A stretch of DNA of 64,000 nucleotides. Source: a virus. The notes under the pieces are model-generated. The model did no database searches. It was not told the origin of the DNA and worked only from the letters and a program-made list of their open reading frames with translations. The position numbers were made by a program, and so were the translations under genes. The DNA is taken from the IMG/VR virus record IMGVR_UViG_3300047325_000150; one strand, given 5' to 3'. Shown here one piece after another: positions 24,523 through 46,922 of the stretch (its first letter is position 1; each line of letters begins with the position of its first letter).

Positions 24523-25246
24523 TTACCATGATGCATTACCTGCAAAGCCATTATCTATTAGTTCTTTCTGACAAAGAAGAATTTTCTTTTTGAATGAAAT
24601 ATCTTCCATCTTTTTATATTTACATAAAATATTTCTGCGTTTTATCGTTAAGATAACGTAAGACATGAACATATCCGTCGTTGTGACTTCCGATCTCTCC
24701 CAATCCATTGAATGAGGAGAGATTATAACAATCTCTACAGTTTAAATCTTTACCTATAACTTTTGGACTGCCAATTAAATCTGTGATATAAGTGTTGGAA
24801 CAGTGATATGATCCCATAACTTCGTGCGGGCCGCCAACTAAAGTATCAAGGTTATTTCCGGAACAATTAAAATCATTTTGAACATAACTTGGGGAACCTT
24901 TCAATGATGATAATTTAGAATATACGAAATTCCCATCAACTTCTCCCATTTCAAAGTCAAACGGCAACATGCCGTACTCATGAGAAGCATAAATTTCATC
25001 CAGCATATTGGGCGAAAATACTGTATCACCTTTTATTTTAACCATACCGCGTAATACAGTTACTTTATTGTCTGGAAAATAAAATTGTACAAGTCTAGTT
25101 TTTCTTTTGTCATATTCAGATTTAGATTCATTGTCTTTTCGGTATGGATAGAAAAAGTCTAGCATCTTTGTTATATGGTCGTAAGAATCATATACAAATT
25201 CAATGCTAGCGTCGTCTATCCATTTTTTATCAATATGCATGATCAT
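24523..25246 (-). pseudogene. frameshifted member of the LRR-like paralog family
   Basis: The N-terminal 208-aa ORF (24620..25246) and the family C-terminal tail ILLCQKELIDNGFAGNASW (24523..24708) lie in different frames. Confidence 0.5.
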
Positions 25247-26972: not shown

Positions 26973-27440
26973 GTGGAAACGATGGGATCACTTATTAGCG
27001 GAATAACAGGATTCTTTGGTAACATCTTTAGCGGTGTTACTAGCTATATAATAGCTGGCTTAGTTGTATTACTAGTTGCGTTAGGGGTAGTTGGTTATTT
27101 GTATTTTGAACACTCTCAGTCGCAAATGCAAATTCTTGCGGCTAATGTTGCAAAATTAACCGTTGCTAATCAGGAAGATCAAACAACTATTACTGCACAA
27201 GCAAATTTTGCTAAATCGCAAGCAACCCAAATTACATCGTTGCAGCAATTAGAACAACAATCACAATCGGCATATAATGCGTTAGAAGCTAAATTACGAA
27301 GCGAAAATATAACACAAGCCGGACAATCAAATGCTCCTGCATTAGAAACTCAAATTAATTCTGATGCAGCAACATTATTAAATGGTATTACGGCGGCTAC
27401 GCAAATAGGTGTAACAACTACTACTGGAGCAAAACAATGA
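26973..27440 (+). CDS. i-spanin-like protein (N-terminal TM plus periplasmic coiled coil)
   Basis: TM helix IIAGLVVLLVALGVVGYLYF followed by a Gln/Ala-rich coiled coil. Overlaps the downstream lipoprotein gene (ATGA). Confidence 0.5.
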   Translation: METMGSLISGITGFFGNIFSGVTSYIIAGLVVLLVALGVVGYLYFEHSQSQMQILAANVAKLTVANQEDQTTITAQANFAKSQATQITSLQQLEQQSQSAYNALEAKLRSENITQAGQSNAPALETQINSDAATLLNGITAATQIGVTTTTGAKQ

Positions 27441-27817
27441 AATTTATAAAATCTCTTCCATTATTTTTGTTCTTAATCGGATGCGGAGCTCAGCCTATTA
27501 CAGTTAATTCAATACAGACTCAATTACAAGTAACTGATCCGGCACCTCCTGCACCGGTTAATATGGCTGTACCCCATTTTTATGTCATAACCAACAGCAA
27601 TATAACAAGTTTTATGGCAAACCAGGCAACAGTACAAGGTACATCTAATCCAGTAGTTATTGCAGTAACGCCAAGCGATTATGAAAATATAATGTTAAAT
27701 TATTCAGATTTAGAAAGATATTTTAAACAAGAACAGGCTATAAATTCGTATTACCAAACTGCTATAGCTTCTGCACAAAAAGCAGTAGACGATGCTAATT
27801 CCGAGGGGCAAAAATAA
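27437..27817 (+). CDS. o-spanin-like outer-membrane lipoprotein
   Basis: Lipobox LFLIGCG. Pro-rich DPAPPAPV segment. Small size. Confidence 0.5.
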   Translation: MKFIKSLPLFLFLIGCGAQPITVNSIQTQLQVTDPAPPAPVNMAVPHFYVITNSNITSFMANQATVQGTSNPVVIAVTPSDYENIMLNYSDLERYFKQEQAINSYYQTAIASAQKAVDDANSEGQK

Positions 27818-28137: not shown

Positions 28138-28458
28138 TTGACTTATACTTAAAGTGATACTAACGTAGCTTTAGTGATTTCATAACTCGTTATCCTTCTT
28201 ACTTAATATGGTTTTTTGCGGCGGCGTTGGTTTGTCGGTGACTATTTTGATTGATTCCAATACGCTGCGTTTTGGCGCGTTTTCATTCGCGACCAGTATA
28301 TAGAAAACGGTTTTTAACTTAGAAAAATATATTCAAAATATATTAGAAAAATAATAGATTTGGTAGTTATTTAGAAAATATATTCAGAAAGAATTAACCA
28401 AAACATACAGTTGACTCACTTAACTATTAAGTCTAAAAGACTATAATTAGGAGATTAC

Positions 28459-29928
28459 ATGAAAGATAAAACTGCAACTAAAACGTCTAAGAAAGAATCA
28501 CGTCCATATCAAGGAAATGATGCCATTAAGCTTTATTTGCGTGAAATGAGTAAAGCTCCTCTATTAAATCATGCGGCGGAAATTGAAATTTCGCAGACTA
28601 TAGAGAATAGCAAAAAAATAATTGTCGATACTTTATTTGGCATTCCATTTACTGCCAAATTGATTGCATCCTGGATTGAAGATGTAAAAACAGGAAATAC
28701 AGCAGCAGATATTATTTTTGATGTTGATATCTCGGAAGAATCTGGCCCAAGTTTAGAATTTATTAAATCACTTGATTCTGTACATGCGGTTTGTCAAAAA
28801 TATTTTGAAGATACGACAAATGCTGAAGTAAAAGCAGATCTTATCAATCAGTTTAACGAACTGCCGCTTAATCCTAAAGCGTTAGACCAGCTAGTTGAAC
28901 AATTATCTAGTATCAATTATAAATTAATTTCGTGTGATTCGGCTATGATGAAGCTTGCAATGAAGAGCGGAATTAAACGAGAAGAATTTTTGCAACGTTA
29001 TATTGGTAACGAGGATATGGCCTGGCTTGCAAAATGGAATGATCCAAAGTGGCGTGATTTCTCTGATAAGTATAGCAACGAAATACAGAAAATAGTTGAT
29101 GACATTAAGTTACATGCCGATAGCGCAGGACTTAGTGTTACTGAATTACGAGTTGCTACTAAAACATTGAGAACTCAAACAAAAATTAAGGTAGCAGCTA
29201 TTGATAAAATGGTAATATCTAATTTACGATTGGTAGTCAGTGTTGCAAAAAAATATAGTAAAAACAATCAAACTCAATTATTGGATCTTATTCAAGAAGG
29301 CAATATTGGCTTAATTAAAGCTGTTGAAAAATTCAAATGGGAGATGGGTTTTAGATTTAGCACTTATGCAACCTGGTGGATTCGACAAGCAGTTATTAAA
29401 TCGTTGAACGAGGGTAGTAAGACTATTAAAGTGCCGTCGCATGTAATGGATGCGATTAAAAAAATCAATCAAGCAATTGCACATCATGTACATACACATG
29501 GTATAGAACCAACTGATAGCGAATTAGCTGCCTTAGTCGAAATGCCGACAGAAAAAGTAGCAAGAATGCTGCGAGTAGCAAGAGATCCTATTAGCCTTGA
29601 ATCTCCGGTTGGTGGCGATGGCGACCAAGACGAAGGGACCATTGGTCGCTATTTAGAAGATACAAATAGCGAAAATGCGTTTGAGGCTATTAGCGAAGCT
29701 GATAAAGTAAAAGTTGTAAGTGATGCATTACAGACTCTTTCAAGCCGCGAAGAACGTGTATTACGTATGCGATTTGGTATCGGTACTATGGAAGAAAAAA
29801 CTTTAGAAGAAATCGGTAATAAATTTAAAGTAACACGAGAGCGAGTTCGACAAATAGAAACAAAAGCATTAGAGCGGTTAAAACACCCAAATAGACTTAA
29901 AGATTTGGGAGCAGCTCTGAGAGAATAA
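28459..29928 (+). CDS. RpoD-like (group 1/2) sigma-70 family sigma factor
   Basis: Region 2 [37 protein letters not shown], region 3, and region 4.2 [36 protein letters not shown]. Confidence 0.85.
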
Positions 29929-30158
29929 TGGACTTAACTCATTCGGTTGCGGTTGATACATACTATGATACATTTTTAAATAAATCCTCTAACCTGGGAG
30001 ATTATATTTCTGGTGCATTAGATCTAGAATTTCTTATTCAAATTTGGCTTAATACTCGGTGTAGTGGTAAATTTGAATTTGTATTGAGTAAAGGCAAACA
30101 AATGCTTTGTTTTGAACAAGTAGAGGATTATACCGCATTTTGCCTAATTTGGTGCTAA
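29928..30158 (+). CDS. small Cys/Trp-rich protein, paralog A
   Basis: C-terminal FCLIWC resembles the tails of the next two ORFs. Confidence 0.35.
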   Translation: MDLTHSVAVDTYYDTFLNKSSNLGDYISGALDLEFLIQIWLNTRCSGKFEFVLSKGKQMLCFEQVEDYTAFCLIWC

Positions 30159-30168
30159 ATATGTCATC

Positions 30169-30516
30169 GTGGTCATTACCTATGCTAAAAAATTAAGGCT
30201 AGATATTACTAAATTTTCTTCGGCAGATTTAAATGACGAAGCGGTATTGATAAAAGATTGGTATAAGAATCACCAGTTTTTGTATCATTATATATTAGAT
30301 CGTTCTTTAGATTGGAAGGTATATGAATCTTATCATGTAATTCCGCGTGCTAATTGGTGCAAATTACGTTGCGAATCAAGTTGGCGGTATGATTGTATGA
30401 GGGCTAAGAAAGACTTAAATAATAATTGGAGACATTGTACATATGGCACTAATATATTATTTTGGGCATTTAGCTCTATAAATGATTTAGTGAGTTTTAC
30501 ATTGACATGGGAATAA
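30169..30516 (+). CDS. small Cys/Trp-rich protein, paralog B
   Basis: NWCKLRCESSW and a tail FTLTWE. Confidence 0.4.
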   Translation: MVITYAKKLRLDITKFSSADLNDEAVLIKDWYKNHQFLYHYILDRSLDWKVYESYHVIPRANWCKLRCESSWRYDCMRAKKDLNNNWRHCTYGTNILFWAFSSINDLVSFTLTWE

Positions 30517-30863
30517 ATCCAATTGAATGGATAAAAACTATTGCTAACCCAGCAGTTGACAATAGTTGTAATACATTAGATACCAGTGAATATCAGCATA
30601 TAATGGATGCTTATAGAAAATGCGGTAAGCATCCAGTTGTCTGGAATCCAAAACATTCTCTGGGTTATTATCTGACATTAATCAAATTAACAAATTGGTG
30701 CAGAGAGCATTGTCATAACGCCTGGATGGATGTTCATCATAATGCAATAAAAGACGACAATAACGAATATATATTTAAAGAGCTTGGCGGATCCAGAATA
30801 TGTTTTTTTATATTTGATTCGGCTTGCGATGCAGCGATTTTTGCGTTGACCTGGTGTACTTAA
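30507..30863 (+). CDS. small Cys/Trp-rich protein, paralog C
   Basis: NWCREHCHNAW and a tail FALTWCT. Overlaps paralog B. Confidence 0.4.
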   Translation: MGINPIEWIKTIANPAVDNSCNTLDTSEYQHIMDAYRKCGKHPVVWNPKHSLGYYLTLIKLTNWCREHCHNAWMDVHHNAIKDDNNEYIFKELGGSRICFFIFDSACDAAIFALTWCT

Positions 30864-31021: not shown

Positions 31022-31465
31022 ATGTCTCTAATAAATGAATTGCGTGAAAAGTCCATTACTGCTCGTAAAGGCTCTGATACTGTAGCCAAAAATTTATTGG
31101 TTACATTGTATGCCGAGTGCGTTCGAGTTGGCAAAGACAAACGCAATGGCGAGACGACCGACGACGAATGTCTTAGCGTCATCAAAAAATTTCTTGAAAA
31201 TGCTAAAGCAACAGCAGAGCTTCTTGAATACAAGGTTCCGGCGGCGTCAAGCTTTATCCACGAAGTTTCAATCCTTAGCGATTTGCTACCAAAGCAACTT
31301 ACAATCGACGAATTGGAACAGGCTATTAGTCAGATAATTGCTGATAAAGCATTATCAGATCTTAAAGGTCTTGGGCAAGTTATGGCTTCACTTAAGGCTA
31401 CATATGGCAGCACGTATGATGGTAAAGCTGCGAGCGAAATCACAAAAAGGTTATTGTCTCAATAG
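31022..31465 (+). CDS. YqeY/GatB-like domain protein
   Basis: Size and pattern match (LREKSITARKGSD..., LSVIKKFLENAKA, LPKQLTIDELEQAISQIIAD, LGQVMASLKATYGSTYDGKAASEITKRLL). Lies directly upstream of AspRS. Confidence 0.55.
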   Translation: MSLINELREKSITARKGSDTVAKNLLVTLYAECVRVGKDKRNGETTDDECLSVIKKFLENAKATAELLEYKVPAASSFIHEVSILSDLLPKQLTIDELEQAISQIIADKALSDLKGLGQVMASLKATYGSTYDGKAASEITKRLLSQ

Positions 31466-31971
31466 TGGATTTCTAACATGTCAGATGCTAACACAGATTG
31501 GCCAGAGGACGGAGAAAATCCGCATACTTTTCATGATTTATCGTATGATAACGGAAAAGTTAAAAAGATGTGGTATTGGACTGGTGCAGGTTGGTGTACA
31601 AAACCGAATAGTTTATATATTATCAAAACACCACAAATGAAGGCAATTGGCTGGATTTATCTTAGAATGATTGAGAAAATATAATGGCAAAAAAGACAAA
31701 AATTAAGAAAGACGCATACGGACTTTATGTTAAAGGCGGAGGCTATCTATGGCGTCCAATTCATCCAGAATACACCGTTGATACTCTATTCACCGACGGT
31801 ATGGAGGTTTCTGTAAACCATACTATGGCTGGTCCGGTGGCTAATATTAACTGTAATGGTATTAAAGAATCTTGGTATAGTCACGGCGCATATATTGAAT
31901 TTAGCAATGGTAAATCTGTTACTATTCAGACTGAAAAACTATTTAAACCTTCTTATGAAAACTGGTATTAA

Positions 31972-33786
31972 ATGTTTCGTACCCATAACTGTGGTGAGCT
32001 AAACCTTACTCACATAAACAAAGATGTGACAATTTCTGGATGGTTGCATTCGGTTCGAAACCACGGCGGCCTTATGTTTTTCGATATTCGAGATCATTAC
32101 GGAATTACGCAATGTGTTTTCAATGCTGAAATTAATGCAGAACTGTATGCCGCTGCCAAACCAACACGAATAGAAAGTGTGGTAAAGATTACCGGCAAGA
32201 CGGTGCGTCGTGTTGAAGGCACACATAACGACAAACTGTTGACTGGTGAAGTCGAAATCGTAGTTGATAAATTTGAAGTTTTGTCAGCAGCTGAAGTTCT
32301 TCCTATGCAAGTAAACAGCTTGGAAAACTATTCAGATGAGATGCGTTTAAAAAATCGCTTTCTTGATCTCCGTCGTGAGAAATTGCACAAGAACATTGTT
32401 CTTCGGTCGCAAGTCATTGAAACCATGCGAGAAAAAATGCGTTCGAAAGGTTTTGTAGAGTACCAAACTCCTATCCTGACTGCGTCATCTCCGGAAGGAG
32501 CTCGTGACTTTCTTGTTCCTGCTCGTAACCATCCGGGTAAATTTTATGCTCTACCACAAGCTCCTCAACAATTCAAGCAATTGCTAATGGTCGCCGGGTT
32601 TGACAAATACTTTCAGATTGCGCCGTGCTTCCGTGACGAAGCTGCGCGGTCAGATCGTTCACCGGGCGAATTCTATCAAATGGACTTTGAAATGAGCTTC
32701 GTTACGCAAGAGGATGTGTTCAATACACTTGAACCAGTCCTTTATGAAGTATTCACTCAATGCCAAATTGGCGCCCCAAAAAAATCCATAACTCATCTAC
32801 CTTTTCCGCGTATTACTTACGCAGATGCAATGCTGCATTATGGTTGTGATAAACCTGACCTTCGTAACCCATTGAAAATTTGGGATGTAACAGAACGCTT
32901 TAAAGATTCTGGGTTTGTGGTATTCGAGGAAATTATTGCAGGCGGCGGCGTAATTCGCGCAATACCATGTAAAGGATTAGGGGGCTATTCAAACGCCTTC
33001 TTCAAAAAATTAAATGATTGGGCCTTAAGTGAAGGAATGAATGGGCTCGGATATGTAAAATATATTCAAAGTGTTTGCAACGATGATAATCCGCCTTGCC
33101 AGATGAATTTCGTTGGACCAATTGCTAAAAATATATCACATGAGCGCAATCTGTTAATTATGCAAGATTATGGTTTGGAATCAAATGACGGTGTTTTCTT
33201 TATTGCTGGCAAATTAAATGAAGCAAACAAATTTGCTTCATTGGTTCGTACCAAACTTGGCGAAGAACTTGGATTGATTAATAAAGACTCATTTGAGTTC
33301 TGTTGGGTTGTTGATTTTCCAATGTTTGAAATTGATGAAGAAAGCGGCAAACTTGGTTTTGCTCACAATCCATTTTCGATGCCGCAGGGTGAAATGACTG
33401 CACTTGAAACGCAAGACCCTCTTACGATCAAAGCCTTTCAATACGATATCGTCTGCAACGGCATTGAACTATCATCAGGTGCAATCCGTAACCATAAGCC
33501 AGAAATTATGTTGAAGGCTTTTGAAATTGCCGGATATTCTGCAGAAGAGGTTGAGTCTCGATTTAGTGGCATGCTATCAGCTTTCCGCTATGGTGCACCT
33601 CCGCACGGCGGTGCGGCGCCGGGCGTTGACCGTATTGTTATGATGCTTGCAGATGAACCAAACATTCGAGAAGTAATAGCCTTTCCTCTCAACCAACAAG
33701 GTGAAGATTTAATGATGGGTGCTCCGTCAATTGTTCCCCCAGAAAGGTTGAAAGAATTATCACTTGATGTGAAAATAAAGAAATAA
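31972..33786 (+). CDS. aspS: aspartyl-tRNA synthetase, bacterial type (class IIb with GAD insertion)
   Basis: N-terminal OB fold ([28 protein letters not shown]). Motif 2 [28 protein letters not shown]. Motif 3 [19 protein letters not shown]. Length 604 aa. Confidence 0.9.
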
Positions 33787-33790
33787 AATT

Positions 33791-34618
33791 ATGTTCATAA
33801 TAGACCAACTGCATAATGAAAATCTTATTTCTCCTCCAAAGTGGTTGGCCAAAAATACTGTATATCTTACAATAACCGGATCACATTCCTACGGAGTTTC
33901 GACTGATAAAAGTGATTTAGATTTTTATGGTATCTGTGTACCACCAAAAGAAATTATATTTCCGCACTTAAATGGTATTGTACCGGGTTTTGGTACACAA
34001 GGAGAAAAATTTGAAAGTTGGTGCGAACAACATATTAAGCATGAGAATTTAGAATATGATTTCACAGTATTCAACATAGTAAAAGCCTTTCAATTAATAA
34101 TGGACGGTAATCCAAATCAGATTGAACAATTATTCTCTTCAGATGGAGATGTAATTCGATCAACTCCTGTGGGAAATCTTATTAGAGAAAATCGAAAACT
34201 TTTTTTAAGTAAAAATTGTTTCTATAAATTTATTGGCTTTGCAAGCGGACAAATAAAACGCCTTAGATCTGGATCTAAAAGTGTTAATCCAAAAATAATT
34301 GATCTAATTAATAGATTTGGATACAATATTAAAGAGGCCTATCACATTCCTAGATTACTTAATCAAGTTGAACAGATACTACTTGATGGCGATTTAGATC
34401 TTTGTAAAAATAACGAAATGCTTATTTCTGTTCGTAACGGAGAATGGACGTTAGATCAAATCGAAAAATATTATAACCATAAAGTTAACGTCTTACAATC
34501 ACTATTATCTGATGCAGTTGTTCCAGATAAACCAAATGAGAAATCACTCAGAGAATTGCTGATCAATTGTTTAGAACTTCATTATGGTAACTTAGGTTTG
34601 TTTAAAACGGTTAAGTAA
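33791..34618 (+). CDS. Pol-beta superfamily nucleotidyltransferase
   Basis: Classic hG[GS]x(9-13)DhD signature GSHSYGVSTDKSDLDFYG. Confidence 0.5.
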   Translation: MFIIDQLHNENLISPPKWLAKNTVYLTITGSHSYGVSTDKSDLDFYGICVPPKEIIFPHLNGIVPGFGTQGEKFESWCEQHIKHENLEYDFTVFNIVKAFQLIMDGNPNQIEQLFSSDGDVIRSTPVGNLIRENRKLFLSKNCFYKFIGFASGQIKRLRSGSKSVNPKIIDLINRFGYNIKEAYHIPRLLNQVEQILLDGDLDLCKNNEMLISVRNGEWTLDQIEKYYNHKVNVLQSLLSDAVVPDKPNEKSLRELLINCLELHYGNLGLFKTVK

Positions 34619-34902
34619 AATGTCAGAAAAGAAATATTGAAAAATACCAATGTATTCATACAATATTATGATGAATACATTATTAGAATCTGCATTAGAA
34701 AAAATAGTAGTAATTACATACCTAAAGAAGGACGGTACAACTCGTTTACTTCGTTGCACTAGAAACAATTCCTTCTTTAATTATGAATTCAAAAAAACTT
34801 CAAACTCTCAACCAAAATCAACTCATATAAATGTTTGGGATTTAGAGAAGTCTGCTTGGAGAACACTTGCTTATGAAAACATCAAAGCGTGGAATGAAGA
34901 AA

Positions 34903-35529
34903 TTAAATAAATTCTTTCTTTAGTAACTCAACAGTTGAGTTACTAACTACTACTTCAAAATGACTAAGGTTTAATTCTAGCAAGTTCATATCTTGCCTAT
35001 GTTTTTGACTTGCAACAGTTACAACACCGTCATTTGGCTCATGCATCCAGGTATTATGCCCTTTAACTGTTACAACATTTGTCCAAGGACAATGTATTGC
35101 AATTCTATTGGCCGACATAATGGGAGGCGATGTAGGAGTTATATCTCTTAGAACTTGTTTGAAAGGTAAGAATAATTTAAGCATGGATGCATGACTGCTT
35201 CCTCCGTACGGAGTACTTAATGTAATTCCTTGAATAGTTCTTTTTGGAAATATATCCATCAAATGAATGGCATATATGCCACCCAGACTATGTGCTATAA
35301 AACGCAGTTTTCCTGTTGTTTTTTCTAATTTATCTTTCATATCTTGAAGATTATTAAAAAATCCATTATCACTATTATAGTCAATTAATATATCATTTCC
35401 TCCAATCATATGTCGAATGTAAGTAAATGATTCAGATGTTGCATTGTTGCCGTGAATATAAACAATAGTCATAGAGTAGTGTCCTAATTGACTACTCTTA
35501 TTTACTCCTTTAGGTAATCTTTGAGCCAA
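34903..35529 (-). CDS. alpha/beta hydrolase (lipase/esterase-like)
   Basis: GxSxG nucleophile elbow IAHSLGG. N-terminal VYIHGNN strand. Confidence 0.6.
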   Translation of the reverse strand: MAQRLPKGVNKSSQLGHYSMTIVYIHGNNATSESFTYIRHMIGGNDILIDYNSDNGFFNNLQDMKDKLEKTTGKLRFIAHSLGGIYAIHLMDIFPKRTIQGITLSTPYGGSSHASMLKLFLPFKQVLRDITPTSPPIMSANRIAIHCPWTNVVTVKGHNTWMHEPNDGVVTVASQKHRQDMNLLELNLSHFEVVVSNSTVELLKKEFI

Positions 35530-35621
35530 TCGAATATGGCACTATTATTGTATCGTCCATTGCATTATTATTAAAAGCTAGCAATTGTTGATTTAAGTCA
35601 ACCGTAATATCGTAATTTTGG

Positions 35622-35649
35622 TTGACACAACAGCTATCTATGCTAGTAT
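35622..35649 (+). promoter_or_regulatory. sigma-70-type promoter (TTGGTTGACA-16-TAGTAT)
   Basis: -35 at 35622-35627 and -10 at 35644-35649. Precedes the gene at 35695. Confidence 0.5.
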
Positions 35650-35694
35650 GAAATTATAAATTTTTTGTAAAATTCAATTTTGGACGAGTGAATA

Positions 35695-36093
35695 ATGAAC
35701 CAGCGGGATATTACCCAATTTAAACAATTTGTTAATTTTAACGAAATTCTGTCATCTATTCAACCCGGTCAAATTTATTGGGTAGCTTCATCTATTTTCA
35801 ATCTGCCTGCAGACTTATCCGGACCATTTACGATGTACTCGTCCGGTTACGATAATGGTTCGTACTATATTTCATGCAGCGAAGATAATAATGTATTTTC
35901 AAGACATTATATTACGGATATTTGCAGGAATAATTTTGACGCAATTTTTACTTCTCAAGATATGGCTATTGAATTTGTAAATATTTCAAAACGTATTTAC
36001 GAATCTAGTACTGAGTGGCAAGAACTTGCAAGGGCAGAACAAGATGCATTTTGCGCAAATTTAGATTCTGATTGGACAGAGCTTGATGATTAA
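35695..36093 (+). CDS. hypothetical protein
   Basis: ORF downstream of a promoter. Confidence 0.4.
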   Translation: MNQRDITQFKQFVNFNEILSSIQPGQIYWVASSIFNLPADLSGPFTMYSSGYDNGSYYISCSEDNNVFSRHYITDICRNNFDAIFTSQDMAIEFVNISKRIYESSTEWQELARAEQDAFCANLDSDWTELDD

Positions 36094-36418
36094 ACATATT
36101 AAACATATCAAAATATTTAATAATTGGGTTACCAATAAATTTATAGTCGAAGATACTAATCAGCCAGATCGAATTACTGTTAAAGAACTTATACAAATTT
36201 TTAACGGGAAACTACCTGAACAAGCATTTGAATTTTTAATTTCGCCTACAGACGGTAAAACCGTTACAGAAATAAGAAACATTTTGTGCTCAATTGCCAA
36301 TGGCACATATATTGCACCGATTCGCCCAGAAGCTATAATACTTCAATTTACAGAACTACCTGTGCAAGTTGTTTCCCAAGAAAATGTTAAAAAGAAAAGA
36401 GTTCGAAAAAAAGCGTAA
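36083..36418 (+). CDS. hypothetical protein
   Basis: Overlapping start with the upstream ORF. Confidence 0.35.
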   Translation: MMIKHIKHIKIFNNWVTNKFIVEDTNQPDRITVKELIQIFNGKLPEQAFEFLISPTDGKTVTEIRNILCSIANGTYIAPIRPEAIILQFTELPVQVVSQENVKKKRVRKKA

Positions 36419-36454
36419 GTTGTAAATTAGATTTGTTGATTATATATTTAAACT

Positions 36455-37090
36455 ATGCAAATAAATTTTAAAGAACTTAGAGCAAGCGAAATTGCTGCAT
36501 CAAATGATGTAAAAAACGTCCATAACGAATTACAGCATTTATCTGTTCCGGAATTACAAAATATTAGTCTGGCAGACCGTATGCCATGGCATGTATGTTG
36601 TTTAAATCTGTCGGGCGATTTAAACGTTGGTACAGTAATTCGTTCAGCGCACCTTTTGGGTGCTAAAAGCGTAATTATATTTGGACGAACTCGGATTGAT
36701 AATCGCAGTCTGGTTGGGGCCGCAAATTATATTACGGTACATCGAATCGCAGGATTGGATGAGAACCTATCGTATGATGTAGATATTTTCAAAAAAACTA
36801 TACAAGATTATAATCTTGTTCCCATCATATGTGAGTCGGGCGGAGAGAATTTATTCGAATTACCCTGGAAAAATCGAATAAATTCAATACTTAATTCTGA
36901 GAAAGAACCTTGCTTAGTACTTGGTAACGAGTCTAATGGAATACCTTTCGATATTATAGAATATGTAAAAAATGTAGAGAACAGTTTTACGGTTACTATA
37001 CCAATGAAGGGTGTGATTCGTAGTTTTAACGTCGCCTCGGCCTTCTCTATAATTGCAAGTCAATTACTTAGCAAAATGTGCTGGTTCTAA
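36455..37090 (+). CDS. SpoU/TrmH-family (SPOUT) RNA 2'-O-methyltransferase
   Basis: NVGTVIRSAHLLGAKSVIIFG, LVLGNESNGIP and IPMKGVIRSFNVASAFSII motifs. Confidence 0.8.
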   Translation: MQINFKELRASEIAASNDVKNVHNELQHLSVPELQNISLADRMPWHVCCLNLSGDLNVGTVIRSAHLLGAKSVIIFGRTRIDNRSLVGAANYITVHRIAGLDENLSYDVDIFKKTIQDYNLVPIICESGGENLFELPWKNRINSILNSEKEPCLVLGNESNGIPFDIIEYVKNVENSFTVTIPMKGVIRSFNVASAFSIIASQLLSKMCWF

Positions 37091-39913: not shown

Positions 39914-40873
39914 TTATGCCATCTCTACTTCGCGTTCCATAACGTCTTCATCACTGTCTTCTTCATCTTCGTTGAACGTAACCAGGTAGTCTAATGCCTG
40001 CGAAGCTTTAGATGCTGCTGACATAATAGCACGACTATCACGTTTCATAACAGTTAGCCAATGTGAAATATAGGGTGCATGGTCCTCACGAATCTCGGGG
40101 ATCAACCCAACCTCGGCCATTAAAAATGCTGCGCCAAGTTCAGCAACAAGCTCTTCCATTGCATATGCTTCGGAACCCCAACGGTCCTGATTAAAATTTC
40201 GATTTAAGCGGGACTCATGACCAGTCCAATGAATGGTTTCATGACCGCGAGTAGAAAGGTATTTTTGCTCAGTAACAAATGAATCACGCTCAGGCAAATG
40301 CACGCAATCATTCTTAGTTGAGTAATATGCTTTGTTGCCGCCATGCTTAACAGACGCTGGAATAGCTTCAAACCATGCAAAACAGTTATTATATGCTGTC
40401 CAATTTTTTGTAACTTCGGATATAATAGTTACTTTTGGCAGTGCAAATTTCTCAGGAAGGCCGTCAATTTGTTCAACATTGAACACATTATAGGTTTTCA
40501 AAAAACTGAACTTGTGTTCGACATCTTGGCCGTTTGCATCTTGTTCGGTTTTTTTGACTAAATTAGTGTAAACGATCTGCGTAGCCTTCTCACCTTTGCG
40601 AACATTTGCACCGTACGAAGTAGCCTGCTTATAAGTCATCCAAAATGGTGACTCATATCCGCAAGCCTTAGCTTTTGACCAAAGAATAAGCACGTTGATA
40701 CCTTTATAGCGTGCTCCGTTGTGGCGCCGTGGGACAGACAGCCCGCTTTTACCAAGCCACGGTTTCGTCCATGGCAATACGCCATTTTCGAGTTCAGCAA
40801 TGATAGAATTTGTAATTTGCTCACAAACGTCACTTGTTTTCATTATCAAAATCCTATTTTTTGATAGTTGCAA
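39914..40873 (-). CDS. ArdC-like antirestriction protein (N-terminal ssDNA-binding domain plus zincin-like metallopeptidase)
   Basis: DUF1738-like N-terminus (ELENGVLPWTKPW, GINVLILW). HExxH-type HETIHWTGHE in the C-terminal half. Confidence 0.65.
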   Translation of the reverse strand: MQLSKNRILIMKTSDVCEQITNSIIAELENGVLPWTKPWLGKSGLSVPRRHNGARYKGINVLILWSKAKACGYESPFWMTYKQATSYGANVRKGEKATQIVYTNLVKKTEQDANGQDVEHKFSFLKTYNVFNVEQIDGLPEKFALPKVTIISEVTKNWTAYNNCFAWFEAIPASVKHGGNKAYYSTKNDCVHLPERDSFVTEQKYLSTRGHETIHWTGHESRLNRNFNQDRWGSEAYAMEELVAELGAAFLMAEVGLIPEIREDHAPYISHWLTVMKRDSRAIMSAASKASQALDYLVTFNEDEEDSDEDVMEREVEMA

Positions 40874-41240
40874 GCTTAGCAGTTTCTACCGAAACGCCAA
40901 AGATTTTTCCATTCTGATCTCGCACTTTTACTGCAAACTTAGGTTTGCGCGGATCAAAACCAATCAGTTCAAATGTCTTTGTCCGCATTTTAAAAGTGGC
41001 TTTATAATGCTCGGGAGTAAACCCGAACAAAGTAGACATTCTCTCAAACATCTCTCGCTCTGCATTAGCAGTATCGCCGGCATTTTTAGGCAAAGTAAAC
41101 GTAAATTTGATGGTAACTTCGGTATCGGAAAAACGACCTGAGCCGCGTGTTACAATTGCCCTACCATCAAATTTTGCTTTAAGAGCAGATTCTGCATCCT
41201 TAGCAATAACAGAAACACGTTCTTTTGTCATAGTGCTCAT
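40854..41240 (-). CDS. hypothetical protein
   Basis: ORF overlapping the ardC-like start. Followed upstream by divergent promoters. Confidence 0.4.
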   Translation of the reverse strand: MSTMTKERVSVIAKDAESALKAKFDGRAIVTRGSGRFSDTEVTIKFTFTLPKNAGDTANAEREMFERMSTLFGFTPEHYKATFKMRTKTFELIGFDPRKPKFAVKVRDQNGKIFGVSVETAKLATIKK

Positions 41241-41359
41241 TTATAAGCCCTTAATGTGAGTGTGTTACGTCCGTTAATGTAGCATCATAATATATATAGT
41301 CAACCAAAATTTGTCCAAAAATATATATCAAAATTGGATAAAATGTCTGGTAATTTTGG

Positions 41360-41387
41360 TTGACAGTGATATTTTTGGTGTTATATT
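41360..41387 (+). promoter_or_regulatory. sigma-70-type promoter (TTGGTTGACA-16-TATATT)
   Basis: -35 at 41360-41365 and -10 at 41382-41387. Confidence 0.5.
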
Positions 41388-41405
41388 AGCGGAGTAATAA
41401 CGCAA

Positions 41406-42095
41406 TTGGAGCAAAAGTTCATGGTTAGTTTTGCGAATGTAAAAACTGTTTCTAAACCATCTCCCAAAGGTAAGGCAACAAAAGCGTCTATTAAAATTGA
41501 CGGATTGCTACAGTTTGCAGCGCTCAACAATGCAATGGGTACCATCGAGACGTTGAAAAAGACGTACGAAGATGAAGTAAAAACACAAATGCTGGCCCAG
41601 TTTATTACCGCTGGTTCAGCAAGTGGATTGAAGCCAGAAAGCTTTGAAGGCACCGAAGATCAAGCAACTGCTAGCTGCGAAATTCGCAAGCGTAGCATCC
41701 GTAGTGTGCTTTCCTCCACTGATAGAGCAATTCTTGCAGATCATAAGATTCCCGTTGAGGAAACAACGTCGGAAACCGAAACGTTGATTTTTAATCCTGC
41801 ATACCTCAATGATGCTAAGCTGATGGCAAAAATTGAAGCAGCATTGAATAAGATTCCTGGGTTGCCAGATGATATCATTATGAAGCAGGAAGGTGTTACC
41901 ACCTTTACCGTTTCTGATGCTACTGTAAACGCAGTATTTGCCACGAAAGATAAAGCAAAACTAGAATTGCTGATTCCTATCGTTACAACGTTGGCAGTGA
42001 AGCCGAAGTTGGATGATGACACTGTAGTTGCCGACACGATTCGTACTCTTCTCCTCGGGGAAACAAAGAAAACCGCTAAAAAGGCTGCTAAGTAG
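41406..42095 (+). CDS. hypothetical protein (GC-elevated block)
   Basis: ORF with an RBS GGAG. Lys-rich C-terminus. Confidence 0.4.
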   Translation: MEQKFMVSFANVKTVSKPSPKGKATKASIKIDGLLQFAALNNAMGTIETLKKTYEDEVKTQMLAQFITAGSASGLKPESFEGTEDQATASCEIRKRSIRSVLSSTDRAILADHKIPVEETTSETETLIFNPAYLNDAKLMAKIEAALNKIPGLPDDIIMKQEGVTTFTVSDATVNAVFATKDKAKLELLIPIVTTLAVKPKLDDDTVVADTIRTLLLGETKKTAKKAAK

Positions 42096-42103
42096 TCCTT
42101 TAG

Positions 42104-42337
42104 ATGAGTAAGATGAGGGGTAAATCAATGAGAGAATTTAAGGCAGGCCAGGTCTGGCAGATGGGTGCAAGGCACGGAGGAGGAAAGACGAAGATCAAGG
42201 CCGTGTTTCCTAACTTCATCAGCTGGGAGCACCTGGCTAGTGAGGGCAGGGGTCCAATCTTGGGCCAGTGGAGCCACATCGGGTTCGACGAGTGGGTTAC
42301 TAAGTTTCAGTGCGTGCTAGTCGAAGACGACGGATAG
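42104..42337 (+). CDS. hypothetical small protein, GC-rich (about 55%)
   Basis: ORF. Likely real start at an internal ATG (MREFKAGQ). Confidence 0.35.
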   Translation: MSKMRGKSMREFKAGQVWQMGARHGGGKTKIKAVFPNFISWEHLASEGRGPILGQWSHIGFDEWVTKFQCVLVEDDG

Positions 42338-42409
42338 TTTGATGTGAACTTTTACTTGCCCTCTCAAAGGATTGCTAAAGATACTTCAACGAGGTCATAG
42401 GAGACAAAA

Positions 42410-42700
42410 ATGACCAAATGGAACGAAACTTATGAGGCTGCTGCTTTTATCTCTTCGGGCGATAGCCGCAAAACATGCAAGCATGTTATGGAAGCAATTG
42501 CGTTTTTTGCTGAAAACTTGACCGAAGCCGAAGCATTTTGGAATGGTGATTTTGGCGGCAAAGTTGATGAACTTGCGATCTGGGAACACGCTACCAATAA
42601 TGGCAAAATCGAATCCGAGGATATGTTATGGGGAATTGATGGCGCACGGTGGGCAATTAATTTGAACTTATGCGAGATTTCCCATATTGGTTCGAATTAA
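42410..42700 (+). CDS. hypothetical protein
   Basis: ORF with a GGAGA RBS. Confidence 0.4.
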   Translation: MTKWNETYEAAAFISSGDSRKTCKHVMEAIAFFAENLTEAEAFWNGDFGGKVDELAIWEHATNNGKIESEDMLWGIDGARWAINLNLCEISHIGSN

Positions 42701-42713
42701 AAGGTAATATGTT

Positions 42714-43343
42714 GTGAAATATACAGAATATGGGTTTTTATATCCACCGCGTCCAGAAAACGCGATTATGAAAATGGCCCTATCTGCTTATGATGCTCGA
42801 AAATGGCACGCGCAAATTAAAAAAAATGGGACAAATAATGTAATTGCAGTAAGTCCGGAGAAAGAATTAATTTGCATGACTCGTCATGGTGTACCACATA
42901 AACAATGGGCACCTACAACCGAATCAGCTGAACCATTTAAAGCTTTACCCGGAAAAGGCTGGTATGTTTTTGTTGCAGAACTTATGAACAACAAAACACC
43001 TGACATCAAAGACATTAATTATGTAAATGATGTATTAGTTGCTGATGGTGAGTACCTTGTCGGGGTCACATTTAGTGAACGTCAGTTACTGATTGAGTCG
43101 CTTTTTAACGTACACGCAGGCGAAAGTGCAGAATCTCATTGGATTGCTCATCCAAATCTTTGGGTTGCAAAAAGCTTTAAAGGCGTAAATTTTCGCACTC
43201 TTTTTGAAGAATTGCATAAACCTGAGGACGAAGGTTTAGTCATTAAAAATCCAAATGCGAAACTACTATTATGTAATACCCAATCTGCTAATTCAGGTTG
43301 GATGGTTAAAATTCGTAAAAAGACTAAGAATTATGGGTTTTAA
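42714..43343 (+). CDS. minimal Rnl2-like RNA ligase (nucleotidyltransferase domain only)
   Basis: Motif I KKNGTN (compare KxHGxN of Rnl2). Motif IV EGLVIKN. Motif V LLLCNTQ ... KIRKK. Confidence 0.5.
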   Translation: MKYTEYGFLYPPRPENAIMKMALSAYDARKWHAQIKKNGTNNVIAVSPEKELICMTRHGVPHKQWAPTTESAEPFKALPGKGWYVFVAELMNNKTPDIKDINYVNDVLVADGEYLVGVTFSERQLLIESLFNVHAGESAESHWIAHPNLWVAKSFKGVNFRTLFEELHKPEDEGLVIKNPNAKLLLCNTQSANSGWMVKIRKKTKNYGF

Positions 43344-43756
43344 AATTACAATTGGTTATGTTACTTTAAATCGCTAATTGATTTTTTACAGGAGAATATA
43401 ATGGGTACAAAAAAAGTGACTAAAAATTATCAACAAGCTCCGTATACAATCTTTTCCGACACTTGCGAAAAGCTTGGTTTGAATCCGAGCGGGCTTTGTA
43501 CAAAACTTGGATATGCTTCTAATAGTTCATCTTCCTGGAAAACGCTTGGAAAAATTCCAAAAGTTGTTGCCGTTAGCTGTCAGGCCTTGCTTCAGATTGA
43601 AAAAAATAAAGAAAAAACTGCAAATGCTAATGATGCAGTCGAAACTTGGGTAATTGTTACTCGTTCAACTGATCAGCGAAATGCAATCAAAGGACTTTTG
43701 AAGGGTTTTGATGTAGAGCATATGCTTATCAGCCAGGCTGCTTGAACTTATAAATG

Positions 43757-43780
43757 GAATGCGCGCTAATGCGCGCATTC
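43757..43780. terminator. bidirectional terminator hairpin
   Basis: GAATGCGCGC-taat-GCGCGCATTC perfect 10-bp stem between convergent genes. Confidence 0.6.
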
Positions 43781-44545
43781 TGTATCAATATATGGTTGGT
43801 CGTTTGGATTTTCTGGACTTAGTGAGTTACAAAACTTTTCCAATGATGAAGTTGAGTCTGACACAGGGGGAGGCTGAGTTTGTTTAACCTCCTGTGTCAC
43901 AATTACAGCGGTTTTAGATGACGCATTGTTATATGATGCCGCTGCAAGTTTTGGGCCAGGATCAGTATTTTCAGTTGGGCACGGTTTACCTAGCATTGCA
44001 CGAGCATTGCGATAATCAATGAATTGACACATCATTTGATCAGCGACATCTTCTTGGTTCATATTCCATGTCATTCTTATTCGTTCAAGTGTTTCGCATT
44101 CTTGCGAAGTATATGCACCTTGCGCTGCACCACCAAATCCGGCAATAGAAATTGTTCCGCCAACTGGTACCATGCATGGCGCAGTAGGTGTTTCAATTAA
44201 AGTTGCTTGGTCTGGAACATTATGGATAGTTTCGGACCCAGAATAGTGGACATTTGAATTATCTGTAGTTGTACCAGAATAATTTACGTTATTACTTGCA
44301 GGGTCTGCTGCTGACCCTATTCCGTTTGGATCAGCGGCGGCGACCGGATCATTAATAGTAATTTCGGCAGATCCTCCACCCGATCTACTCGAACTAGCAC
44401 CAACTTCGCTTCCGGACGATGCACTGGCTCCGGAACTACTGGTGGATGTTGAATTTGAAGTTAGTGCGGTTTGTGCCATAGCTTCTGGCATTATTGCAAC
44501 TGTCATCGCTAATAGTAATCCAAATTTAACCATAACACATCTCAT
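43766..44545 (-). CDS. secreted Ser/Gly/Thr/Ala-rich low-complexity protein
   Basis: Signal peptide MVKFGLLLAMTVAIMPEAMA. Long STSSSGASASSGSE tracts. Cys-containing C-terminal domain. Confidence 0.5.
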   Translation of the reverse strand: MRCVMVKFGLLLAMTVAIMPEAMAQTALTSNSTSTSSSGASASSGSEVGASSSRSGGGSAEITINDPVAAADPNGIGSAADPASNNVNYSGTTTDNSNVHYSGSETIHNVPDQATLIETPTAPCMVPVGGTISIAGFGGAAQGAYTSQECETLERIRMTWNMNQEDVADQMMCQFIDYRNARAMLGKPCPTENTDPGPKLAAASYNNASSKTAVIVTQEVKQTQPPPVSDSTSSLEKFCNSLSPENPNDQPYIDTECAH

Positions 44546-44835: not shown

Positions 44836-44906
44836 AGAACTGTTCCTAAAAAGGGTGAGAAATTAAGTATTCCTAATTCCTCACCAAGTTGTATTTTCGA
44901 GATTTT

Positions 44907-45543: not shown

Positions 45544-45571
45544 GTTGACAGCTCGGATATTGATGCTATTA
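45544..45571 (+). promoter_or_regulatory. sigma-70-type promoter (TTGGTTGACA-16-TATTAT)
   Basis: -35 at 45544-45549 and a -10 at about 45566-45571. Confidence 0.45.
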
Positions 45572-46913: not shown

Positions 46914-46922
46914 GATACACAA

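Follow-up and report, generated by a model that had tools for sequence, protein, structure and literature searches.

A predicted RpoD-type sigma factor and a conserved class of putative GG-extended promoters in a clade of huge T4-related phages

Results

The sigma gene and its surroundings

The window, by which we mean the whole 64,000-nucleotide stretch of DNA analysed, comes from a contig of 64,809 bp and covers 64 kb of the genome of an uncultivated huge phage related to T4. It contains the T4-type genes rIIA, rIIB and, adjoining the sigma gene, an Rz-like/T4 spanin, together with 17-18 tRNAs, and these features bear out the original prediction that the sigma factor is encoded by a phage. 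Spanin genes are also syntenic with the sigma gene in its relatives. An Rfam scan of the window returned tRNAs only. Neither a phage multisubunit RNA polymerase nor a gp23-type capsid gene nor gp55/gp33 genes were found within the 64 kb, and a search of the window for a CRISPR array or an AsiA-like gene was likewise negative. Megablast comparison of 24 kb of the window with 50,697 phage records yielded zero matches.

The sigma open reading frame occupies positions 28459-29928 on the plus strand and encodes 489 amino acids, exactly as predicted. Its ATG, preceded at 5 nt by AGGAG, is the first start codon after a stop, so an in-frame N-terminal extension is impossible. Upstream, at 28411-28447 (plus strand), lie one or two candidate promoters, reading either TTGACT (28411)-17-TAAAAG or TTAACT (28420)-16-TATAAT (28442-28447), both devoid of GG and TG; the sigma gene's own candidate promoter is weak or ambiguous and stands outside the extended class described below. 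Just ahead of it, at 28320-28389 (plus strand), A/T-rich direct and inverted repeats, TAGAAAA(A)TATATTCA, occur in 2-3 copies and possibly represent an operator or UP-like region. Downstream, a 76-aa ORF (29928-30158, plus strand) has its start codon overlapping the sigma stop codon (TAATG); Pfam and PHROG gave no match for it, and a homologue search returned itself alone. This ORF is the first of three encoding small F-x-L-x-W-ending proteins, the others being at 30169-30516 and 30507-30863.

Five Pfam matches, all exceeding the curated cut-offs, were obtained along the protein: Sigma70_r1_2 (aa 21-50; 31.2 bits against a cut-off of 22), Sigma70_ner (117-216; 55.8 bits, last half of the profile only), and the sigma-70 family regions r2 (252-317; 68.8 bits), r3 (332-409; 62.8 bits) and r4 (423-476; 63.1 bits). 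The best NCBIfam match was RpoD PRK05658 (433 bits), and scores lay below the cut-offs of the RpoD equivalog models (NF004208, 433 bits versus 555; TIGR02393, 268 versus 354). The closest solved structure was the RpoD chain 7ye1_F (316 bits), which we take to be that of Caulobacter crescentus, while E. coli RpoD scored 263 bits. The protein had been described as a complete RpoD-like sigma factor; Pfam, NCBIfam and the structure match uphold the RpoD type, but not the completeness, the protein having a shortened non-conserved region and no region 1.1. By BLASTP, residues 21-51 correspond to E. coli RpoD 96-126, leaving E. coli residues 1-95 without a counterpart; only 20 residues precede region 1.2, and region 1.1 is missing clade-wide too. 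The insert between regions 1.2 and 2 spans about 80 aa in the phage protein versus about 129 aa in E. coli RpoD. A T4 gp55-type minimal late sigma factor, which the original prediction had already set aside, is ruled out by the length of 489 aa and the presence of regions 3 and 4. Such a factor is small, has a region-2-like part only and reads TATAAATA, a motif that shows no enrichment in the window. Overall, the domain make-up identifies the predicted product as a genuine RpoD-type sigma factor, and one predicted to be functional after the loss of region 1.1.

A conserved sigma clade with its own substitutions

Among the top 120 matches, the sigma clade comprises at least 120 database clusters, which are 50-69% identical and about 485 aa long. 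The phage contigs of the clade measure 325-493 kb, and IMG/VR contigs bearing relatives extend up to 453 kb; these relatives were recovered by an alignment-based IMG/VR search, a single-protein search having confirmed none. In an alignment of 24 sigma sequences the mean column identity was 66%, and the DNA-reading and core-binding motifs were invariant. The clade is thus old, well conserved and carried by phages of roughly 300-500 kb. No close relative was found in deposited phage genomes, among which Vibrio phage 2.275.O gave the best match of true phage origin (29% identity), with a diverged region 4.2. The top match, labelled 'Acinetobacter phage' MD-2021a, was rejected as bacterial chromosome because it is flanked by ybeD and lipB, and we assume that the Klebsiella prophage records among the top matches are probably bacterial DNA.

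The original prediction had staked itself on DNA-binding residues in regions 2.4 and 4.2, and the mapped DNA readers are kept bar two. On the BLASTP map (E. coli numbering), the phage protein retains Q437, H455, R584, E585, R586, R588, Q589 and K593, the changed DNA-reading positions being T440->I (a -12 reader) and E458->D (a TG reader). In E. coli the -35 element is read by R584, E585, R586, R588 and Q589, the TG by H455 and E458, and position -12 by Q437 and T440; T440I alters -12 specificity, and region 4 contacts 9 bp, that is, more than the hexamer (PMC2613000). Recognition of TTGACA is predicted from region 4.2, which is canonical and does not vary within the clade. With the -35, TG and -10 readers kept, T440I apart, the phage sigma should read the promoters of the window, as should the host sigma; because the -35 and TG readers match those of cellular RpoD, the two cannot be told apart by sequence alone.

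Across the clade, T440 is replaced by I, F, V, M or L and R441 by K, position 596 (R in E. coli) varies, and K597 has mostly become R (R473 in the phage protein). In all cellular-type RpoDs sampled, ITR(S/A)IADQART and KALRKL are retained. Both of the near-invariant primary-sigma motifs, WWIRQAITR(S/A)IADQART and KALRKL(R/K)HP, are altered in the phage protein, KALERLKHP replacing the latter, and nearly all of about 65 cellular-type RpoDs in IMG/VR loci keep both, with few single-residue variants. Such substitutions hint at an altered, not identical, recognition. None of the GGTTGACW sites has a C at -12, which T440I might allow, and co-variation between sigma position 597 and the use of GG gave no usable signal, the promoters per phage being too few.

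Putative extended promoters in the window

Five exact copies of TTGGTTGACA, all on the plus strand, lie at 176, 8300, 35618, 41356 and 45541. Allowing up to one mismatch, 15 sites were counted versus 5.8 +/- 2.3 in shuffled sequences, none of 100 shuffles reaching 15. The pattern TTGACW-N13-15-TGnTAnnnT was observed 5 times versus 0.44 expected over the whole window and 0.06 in intergenic DNA, and TTGACW-N15-18-TAnnnT occurred 15 times in intergenic DNA versus 1.7 expected. A generic sigma-70 consensus scan of this AT-rich window revealed no enrichment (81 versus 74 +/- 8), so that only the high-information promoter class stands out. A k-mer search of the window found no second enriched intergenic motif, and no separate host-like TGn promoter class was seen there. 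One k-mer enriched in intergenic DNA, TTGGTTGC, proved to represent the arms of terminator hairpins, and its reading as a promoter was dropped.

Five core sites share the arrangement ATTTTGG-TTGAC(A/T)-N13-TG(C/T)-TAnnnT, with -35 boxes at 8304, 35622, 41360 and 45545 on the plus strand and 41303 on the minus strand. Their parts are an A/T tract (ATTTT), GG, the -35 box, a uniform 16-bp spacer and an extended -10 with TG(C/T). All lie between genes and point the same way as the gene that follows (gene calls came from a greedy ORF heuristic), with the start codon 46-73 nt past the -35 box; about 27 nt beyond the -10 comes a Shine-Dalgarno sequence and then, mostly, a short ORF. The site at 8297-8331 (plus strand; TTGACA-N13-TGC-TACATT) has the start codon of a 92-aa ORF 54 nt past its -35 box; its upstream tract reads TTTTTGG, not ATTTTGG. 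Those at 35615-35649 (plus strand; ATTTTGG-TTGACA-N13-TGC-TAGTAT) and 41353-41387 (plus strand; ATTTTGG-TTGACA-N13-TGT-TATATT) precede, respectively, the 35695 ORF with a SpoU-methylase operon, and the 41406 ORF. The divergent partner of the latter, at 41276-41310 on the minus strand (ATTTTGG-TTGACT-N13-TGC-TACATT), lies ahead of an ORF at 40854-41240 and an ArdC-like gene at 39914-40873, which form an ArdC-like anti-restriction operon. The fifth, at 45538-45572 (plus strand; ATTTTGG-TTGACA-N13-TGC-TATTAT), is followed by an ORF at 45598-46242. A weaker member without TG (173-208, plus strand; ATTGG-TTGACA-17-ATACTT) heads an AAA-ATPase/phosphoesterase/kinase-like operon, and degenerate members lie at 46534-46568 (plus strand; AATTTGG-TTGACG) and 63368-63402 (plus strand; ATTTTGG-TTGAAA-16-TAGTTT). 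The TTGGTTGACA sites are, from this arrangement, the -35 halves of what should be very strong sigma-70-type promoters.

The original prediction had listed eight sites, its coordinates marking the TTGACA part or deviating by up to 4 nt. Those given as 8300, 35622, 41360 and 45544 hold. That at 46541 has the TTGG (TTGGTTGACG) but a poor -10. The site at 9953 (aggtTTGACA) is an ordinary sigma-70-type promoter ahead of rIIA (9954-9981, plus strand; TTGACA-16-TATAGT), without TG and without GG abutting the hexamer, and that at 56328 (TTTGTTGACA), which also lacks TTGG, is a sigma-70-type promoter leading into the tRNA cluster (56328-56356, plus strand; TTTG-TTGACA-17-TATAAA). The eighth, near 55770, is not a promoter but a bidirectional intrinsic terminator hairpin (55735-55780), GCAACCAAAA...TTTTGGTTGC-T6, of which the arm TTGGTTGC resembles the motif. 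Absent from the list were 176, 41303 (minus strand) and 63371. The TTGG-TTGACA family it described was found, while the extended -10 TG(C/T), the ATTTT tract and the uniform 16-bp spacer had been overlooked.

The promoter class across the phage clade and beyond

The exact 18-base extended motif was detected in at least 38 IMG/VR stretches, many of them from related huge phages, while control patterns gave 0 (base-permuted) and 16 (GG changed to CC; about 8 distinct sequences). The counts in the window, 5 versus 0.44 among them, make the predicted family non-random. Its absence from the sigma-proximal promoters of relatives had suggested that the TTGG extension was private to this phage, an idea overturned by the IMG/VR pattern scan. 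Among cellular genomes the motif is sparse (38 stretches in 596 Gb), and promoters of functional look bearing it occur in unrelated bacteria, e.g. ahead of a gammaproteobacterial tRNA gene; 31 of these 38 have T at -7. Motif-bearing loci have rIIA/rIIB, CCA-enzyme and RlaP genes in common with the window.

As loci L084-L121 were picked by the motif, selected instances were left out of the GG and TGnTA statistics. GG stands directly 5' of TTGACW in 51 of 86 unselected clade promoters (59%) versus a background of 4.2%, and a correctly spaced TGnTA follows in 42% of unselected GGTTGACW sites. In unselected clade sites, A/T makes up about 80-90% of positions 3-6 ahead of the hexamer, and the upstream part of the extension has decayed to a generic A/T tract, GG alone being fixed. 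A C at -13 is present in 80% of GG-class sites, and 74 of 83 are followed by a Shine-Dalgarno sequence and an ORF (median 97 aa). The 16-bp spacer is preferred in the GG class (38:13), versus 17:18 for non-GG promoters, often C-TTGACA (Fisher p = 0.02). At one locus (L085) the two kinds occupy separate blocks; ORFs behind GG promoters are no different in length from those behind non-GG ones (p = 0.26). Relatives display dense arrays of extended promoters ahead of small genes, and their sigma gene has a TTGACA-N14-TGCTA promoter. Among the relatives examined, a non-GG promoter serves the sigma gene in L001, L005/L006, L008 and L010, and L004/L016 has an aaGG promoter. Conservation of the motif extends over phages with a local GC of 28-62%, and the sigma clade and the GG class were found on one contig in two cases, of 452,799 bp (L016, L090) and 199,865 bp (P0010; L097, L106). 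Taken together, the putative extended promoters form a class that is conserved across the phage clade.

Discussion

Phage sigma factors and strong extended promoters are both already known from jumbo phages. RpoD-like sigmas occur in RNA-polymerase-less jumbo phages, and the group 2 T4-related members (Iyer et al. 2021, PMC7824862; PMC13282480) likewise carry a near-complete RpoD homologue amid T4-type genes. Their sigmas and that of the window are presumed to bind host core RNA polymerase; unlike them, the clade described here lacks region 1.1 and has T440(I/F)/R441K. A huge phage reported by Al-Shayeb et al. (2020, PMC7162821) shares with ours many tRNAs, a tRNA synthetase and its own sigma-70, and has CRISPR spacers against the host's sigma-70, leading to the idea that the phage sigma-70 substitutes for the host housekeeping sigma; unlike that phage, our window has no CRISPR array. 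In jumbo phage vB_PcaM_CBB, RpoD-like promoters with an UP-like element are clustered before short hypothetical ORFs, a sigma factor comprising regions 2-4 is encoded in the same early region, and a second, divergent RpoD-like class (-35 TGAAACG), presumably for the CBB sigma, lies ahead of replication genes (PMC5259590). Unlike in CBB, no second -35 class was seen in the window, and the -35 readers of the sigma are canonical.

The promoters most resemble the T4 'über' early promoters (UP/-35/TGn/-10), which are read by host sigma-70 (Hinton 2010, PMC2988021) and outcompete host promoters (PMC2988021). Both combine a near-consensus -35, TGn and -10 in one promoter (here in the five core sites), have extra conserved upstream positions and are dense ahead of small early genes; unlike the T4 promoters, those of the window have an upstream ATTTT-GG that is not a canonical A-rich UP element and a spacer of 16 bp, and unlike T4 the phage also encodes an RpoD-type sigma. 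The alphaproteobacterial sigma-70 consensus CTTGAC-N17-CTATAT (PMC2873474) fits the C at -13 and the non-GG subclass C-TTGACA-N14-TG-CTA, while the GG class differs from it in the G ahead of the hexamer and the 16-bp spacing.

From these comparisons we infer the timing of the GG class, the holoenzyme that reads it and its benefit to the phage. With moderate confidence, we regard its members as strong early promoters of T4 style, which the host holoenzyme would start and the phage sigma would later keep going. At the onset of infection, the host primary-sigma holoenzyme would fire both the extended promoters and the sigma-70-type promoter that belongs to the sigma gene. The phage sigma, having equal -35, TG and -10 readers, would next bind host core RNA polymerase and keep up or raise the output of the same phage promoters once host sigma-70 becomes limiting, sequestered or inactivated. 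The A/T-GG extension would boost promoter affinity by widening the footprint of region 4, through the alpha C-terminal domain, or both, and would set no separate specificity. Early-type genes, including the ArdC-like operon, lie behind these promoters, which would have to fire before phage proteins exist. Given this and the match in architecture to T4, the possibility raised in the original prediction that the phage sigma is what reads the TTGG extension is unsupported, the -35 and TG readers being those of cellular RpoD.

A dedicated pair, the idea behind the original prediction, is rather unlikely in our estimation. In such a scheme the host sigma would be limited to host-like C-TTGACA/17-bp promoters, including that of the sigma gene, and the phage sigma would then prefer GG-TTGACA/16-bp/TGC-TA sites, giving a two-step early cascade. 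This would agree with the co-occurrence of sigma clade and GG class on the same huge-phage contigs, with clade-only changes, two (T440, R441) adjoining the residues that read -12/-13 and two (R596, K597) in the upstream end of the region 4.2 helix, and with two promoter sub-classes of different spacing in separate blocks, which would fit two readers; the sigma-gene promoters of most relatives are moreover non-GG with N14, region 4 reaches beyond the hexamer, and in E. coli the T440I change is known to alter specificity (PMC2613000). However, the -35 base readers are unchanged, the GG class drives genes such as ArdC that are needed before phage proteins, functional-looking exact-motif promoters occur in unrelated bacteria too, GG and non-GG promoters precede ORFs alike in length, and the window has no separate host-like TGn class. 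We consider it unlikely, too, that the region-1.1-less RpoD derivative, with a hydrophobic residue at 440, R441K and K597R, forms an orthogonal pair with its promoters, favouring GG-extended -35/16-bp/TGC sites in a natural two-tier early cascade.

The sigma might instead be unrelated to the TTGACA promoters and serve a class outside the window or host genes, as a middle-class factor or by reprogramming like the phage sporulation-sigma homologues. The divergent class that accompanies the CBB sigma (PMC5259590) offers a precedent, the window is only part of a genome, and T440 and R441 are altered; yet the canonical, clade-invariant region 4.2 predicts TTGACA recognition, the search for enriched intergenic motifs in the window yielded no other, and the T4 late motif TATAAATA shows no enrichment there (7 observed versus 13 expected), which leaves this account distinctly improbable. 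Very improbable, in our view, is a role of the ATTTTGG extension as the site of a separate phage or host activator or repressor at about -40 that touches region 4, the extension being read by no sigma and the sigma gene being unrelated. It does sit at a class II activator position, the diverged part of the clade's region 4 is the activator-contact patch (R596, K597, R599), and the motif persists across the whole range of local GC; but it is short and without dyad symmetry, its upstream part decays to an A/T tract in unselected sites with GG alone fixed, and no DNA-binding regulator adjoins the sites among the scanned ORFs.

Housekeeping-type sigmas recur in the genomics of jumbo and huge phages, and we found no report linking one to a defined promoter set. 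The present clade is a clean test case, with an abundant and conserved sigma, a few discrete substitutions at known DNA-reading positions and a sharply defined GG-extended promoter class. Should sigma and promoters not be a specific pair, as in the T4-style account that we favour, this would be one more case in which strong early promoters are accompanied by a sigma 'spare part', unsurprising in itself and of help in annotating the early regions of huge phages. Should the pair be specific, it would show how a phage can turn a primary sigma to a new use, the partitioning of RNA polymerase, and would provide an orthogonal sigma/promoter part.

Gene content of the window

The window (GC ~35%) carries rIIA (10022-12250) and rIIB (12301-13440), an Rz-like spanin gene (27437-27817) that immediately precedes the sigma region, a minus-strand, ArdC-like anti-restriction gene (39914-40873), and genes for an aspartyl-tRNA synthetase (31972-33786), a CCA-adding enzyme (49678-50853) and a Thg1-like guanylyltransferase (53647-54507), as well as 17-18 tRNA genes (56.7-63.4 kb). 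Given this gene content, the lack of any nucleotide-level match to deposited phage genomes, and a source contig of 64,809 bp, the window is a piece of a large, T4-related, uncultivated phage. Translation-related genes occupy 31022-37090 and 49678-54507, with YqeY-like, RlaP-like nucleotidyltransferase and SpoU-type RNA methylase genes accompanying the three enzymes just named; the tRNA cluster, in which the Leu(taa), Leu(caa) and Thr(cgt) genes are duplicated, extends this set. Nine paralogous ORFs (149-246 aa, 26-77% identical) lie at 13476-19175 and 24620-25246. Six of these form a head-to-tail minus-strand array (15722-19175) whose junction sequences are repeated, and a related gene was seen in the IMG/VR locus L099.

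The phage sigma factor and its gene

The ORF at 28459-29928 (plus strand) encodes, as originally predicted, a genuine sigma-70 family member, its 489-aa product matching Pfam Sigma70_r1_2, the distal half of Sigma70_ner, r2, r3 and r4, each above the cut-off. The best NCBIfam model was proteobacterial RpoD (433 bits, the equivalog cut-off of 555 not being reached), and the best solved relative was the RpoD chain 7ye1_F (316 bits; E. coli RpoD, 263 bits). The protein had also been called complete, which holds for regions 1.2, 2, 3 and 4 but not for region 1.1: in a BLASTP alignment with the E. coli K-12 rpoD product, residues 21-51 correspond to E. coli 96-126 (region 1.2), nothing in the phage protein corresponds to E. 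coli residues 1-95 (region 1.1 and linker), and regions 1.2 and 2 are separated by an insert of ~80 aa, versus ~129 aa in E. coli.

The same alignment served as a map of the DNA-reading residues (phage = E. coli), giving Q310 = Q437, I313 = T440, K314 = R441, H328 = H455, D331 = E458, R460 = R584, E461 = E585, R462 = R586, R464 = R588, Q465 = Q589, K469 = K593, E472 = R596 and R473 = K597. In E. coli, -31 and -33 are read by R584 and E585, with -33 also affected by R588, the -14 G:C of the extended -10 is read by H455 and E458, and -12 is faced by Q437 and T440, T440I suppressing a T-to-C change at -12 (Hook-Barnard and Hinton, PMC2613000). Based on this map and these roles, the DNA-binding residues do not appear to be missing, the canonical -35 and TG readers being kept, with one natural change at a -12 reader (T440 to I).

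Upstream of the gene (28138-28458) only a moderate promoter was found, TTGACT-17-TAAAAG or TTAACT-16-TATAAT. This promoter is preceded by direct and inverted repeats rich in A/T (TAGAAAA(A)TATATTCA; 28320-28389), which may serve the sigma gene as an operator or UP-like region; further upstream, at 28263-28279, is a weak terminator-like hairpin. Directly 3' of the gene are three small ORFs (76, 115 and 118 aa; 29928-30863) with a common F-x-L-x-W tail, the first of which overlaps the sigma stop codon with its start (TAATG). No Pfam or PHROG match was found, and a database search with the first recovered only that protein; similar-tailed ORFs also follow the sigma gene in the relatives L122, L003 and L001. 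In L001, the 493-kb relative, a TnpB/Cas12f-like gene (OrfB_IS605 and Cas12f1-like TNB domain; 13264-14463) lies ~1.8 kb downstream of the sigma gene.

A clade of sigma factors on huge-phage contigs

The best 120 database clusters are all ~485 aa long, 50-69% identical, and located on contigs of up to 493 kb; more clade members were found in IMG/VR, on contigs of up to 453 kb. The 493-kb and 325-kb contigs show the gene content of a phage, the sigma gene being preceded by a T4-type spanin. By these comparisons, the phage sigma does not represent a host gene copied recently. An alignment of 24 clade sequences (mean column identity 66%) showed invariant core-binding motifs, -10 melting motifs (YATWWIRQ) and region 4.2 (VTRERxRQIE), and region 1.1 in none of the 24. 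The spread in GC among clade loci (31-56%) suggests that the hosts are varied.

Nearly all of ~65 cellular-type RpoDs from the same IMG/VR search had WWIRQAITR(S/A)IADQART and KALRKL(R/K)HP, with a few single-residue variants, while clade sigmas have I, F, V or M at 440 (E. coli numbering) and K at 441, vary at 596 and mostly carry R at 597. The nearest cultured-phage sigma, from Vibrio phage 2.275.O, is 29% identical and diverged in region 4.2. The rpoD of "Acinetobacter phage MD-2021a" was rejected as a phage sigma, since the records in the phage collection (CAKLQH020000002.1 and CAKLQF020000003.1) are mislabelled bacterial chromosome, with ybeD and lipB flanking the gene; Klebsiella "phage" records with full-length RpoD may be similar host carry-over.

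Extended promoters within the window

Exact TTGGTTGACA occurs five times in the window, always on the plus strand, and 15 times with at most one mismatch (5.8 expected). Reading of the contexts revealed a core architecture, ATTTTGG-TTGAC(A/T)-N13-TG(C/T)-TAnnnT, which combines a -35 box with a 16-bp spacer and an extended -10, at 8304, 35622, 41360 and 45545 (plus strand) and at 41303 (minus strand), the divergent partner of 41360. The predicted promoter family is thereby partly confirmed: five composite sites were found versus 0.44 expected in the whole window (Markov-2 simulations) and 0.06 in intergenic DNA, and the looser TTGACW-N15-18-TAnnnT occurs at 15 intergenic sites versus 1.7 expected. 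Each of the five core sites faces a start codon in its own orientation, 46-73 nt beyond the -35 box. The genes behind the window promoters are mainly small and have no assigned function; the 41303 promoter reads towards the ArdC-like gene. Degenerate members lie at 180 (TTGGTTGACA at 176), 46541 and 63375. Three sites originally assigned to the family fall away: 9953 and 56328, before rIIA and the tRNA cluster respectively, are ordinary sigma-70-like promoters with no TTGG extension, and that near 55770 is a terminator hairpin arm.

This arm belongs to one of two bidirectional terminators (55735-55780 and 15630-15670) with hairpin arms GCAACCAA / TTGGTTGC and flanking T-runs on both strands; TTGGTTGC has five intergenic occurrences in the window, both strands counted, and none in coding DNA. 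GC reaches 40-43% at 8000-10000, 32000-34000 and 40000-48000 versus ~31-35% in the rest of the window, and four of the five core promoters lie within or at the edge of these segments, which may be cassettes of different origin. Behind the TTGGTTGACA site at 176 is an operon (214-3531) encoding a 711-aa double AAA+ ATPase, a metallophosphoesterase (phrog_547), a homologue of which immediately precedes the sigma gene in the relatives L003, L004 and L007, and a 201-aa ORF weakly matching (E = 3e-5) a T7 gp0.7-type kinase / host-transcription-inhibitor PHROG.

The promoter class across the clade and beyond

Relatives have a TTGACA-N13/14-TGCTAnnnT promoter 60-170 nt upstream of the sigma gene, in most cases without GG directly before the -35 hexamer (L001, L005/L006, L008, L010; aaGG in L004/L016). 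A first view drawn from these promoters, that the extension is private to the phage of the window, was overturned by an IMG/VR scan with an exact pattern of 18 fixed bases, ATTTTGGTTGACA-N13-TGCTA. This gave at least 40 matches in at least 38 stretches, with ~25 distinct promoters among the matches listed, nearly all of which had T at -7 and then AGGAG and ATG. A base-permuted control pattern had no match in IMG/VR, and a GG-to-CC control matched 16 stretches (~8 distinct sequences, one coding). Motif-bearing contigs include two that carry clade sigmas (452,799 bp and 199,865 bp) and others of 519, 170, 156 and 137 kb. These loci have rIIA/rIIB, CCA-enzyme, RlaP-like and other genes in common with the window; the genes downstream of the motif differ at each locus, so this is a promoter class and not a single inherited regulatory region. 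Across bacterial and archaeal genomes totalling 596 Gb, the same pattern matched 38 stretches over many phyla, one before a gammaproteobacterial tRNA gene; as 31 of the 38 have T at -7, many are in all likelihood real promoters.

With the instances selected by the pattern itself left out, the clade loci (~500 kb) contain 86 more TTGACW-N13/14-TGnTAnnnT sites, 51 of them (59%) with GG directly before the hexamer versus a dinucleotide background of 4.2%, and with ~80-90% A/T at the four preceding positions. Conversely, 42% of 102 unselected GGTTGACW sites had a correctly spaced TGnTA. Among 83 GG-class sites, pattern-selected and window sites included, 74 are followed by a Shine-Dalgarno sequence and an ORF (median 97 aa; start codon at a median of 27 nt after the -10). 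In non-GG sites C often precedes the hexamer, and the N13:N14 split is 17:18 versus 38:13 in GG sites (Fisher p = 0.02). Both classes occur in adjacent blocks in L085 (IMGVR_UViG_3300006115_000085), where 15 TTGACA-N13/14-TGnTAnnnT promoters lie within 7 kb (1700-8400, minus strand), one per 200-400 nt, a GG-type block being followed by an (A)CAC-type block; early genes of this related phage apparently stand in a very dense array.

Which sigma factor reads the extended promoters

Comparison at the level of sequence establishes a real and conserved sigma factor, and extended promoters that are likewise genuine, suitably positioned and conserved as a class across the phage clade; the class had been suggested to be phage-specific, but matching promoters also occur in bacteria. 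We lean towards shared use, in which the host sigma would read the extended promoters and the phage sigma would be a second user; either should bind, because the -35 and TG readers of the phage sigma are canonical. The motif-matching bacterial promoters count in favour of this, as do the genes served, which are early-type. So do T4 early promoters, which are read by host sigma-70, have extra consensus beyond the host elements and share the architecture of the core promoters described here (PMC2988021), and jumbo phage CBB, whose RpoD-like promoters with a UP-like element cluster in an early region also encoding a sigma factor, a precedent for such promoters alongside a phage-encoded sigma (PMC5259590). 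That the phage sigma is instead the specific reader of GG-class promoters we consider rather improbable, even though the clade substitutions at 440/441 and 596/597, the unlike spacing of two promoter sub-classes and the non-GG promoter driving the sigma gene in most relatives all speak for it. The non-GG form, C-TTGACA-N14-TG-CTA, equals the alphaproteobacterial consensus CTTGAC-N17-CTATAT (PMC2873474).

With an additional housekeeping-type sigma, the phage might gain a supply of sigma while the host sigma is scarce or sequestered. Regions 1.1 and 4 of sigma have binders and, speculatively, loss of region 1.1 and an altered region-4 surface could free the phage sigma from inhibitors of the host sigma. 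Alternatively, it might act as a substitute once the phage disables the host sigma, as suggested for a huge phage that has its own sigma-70 and CRISPR spacers against the gene for the host sigma-70 (PMC7162821).

In the literature examined we found no description of a clade without region 1.1 and with T440(I/F)/R441K, nor of a clade-wide A/T-GG-TTGACA-16-TGC-TA promoter class; these are the two specifics added by this phage. RpoD-like sigmas have been described in jumbo phages lacking an RNA polymerase (PMC7824862; PMC13282480), as have strong RpoD-type early promoters, and the sigma factor and promoters of this uncultivated phage are a further case of that kind.
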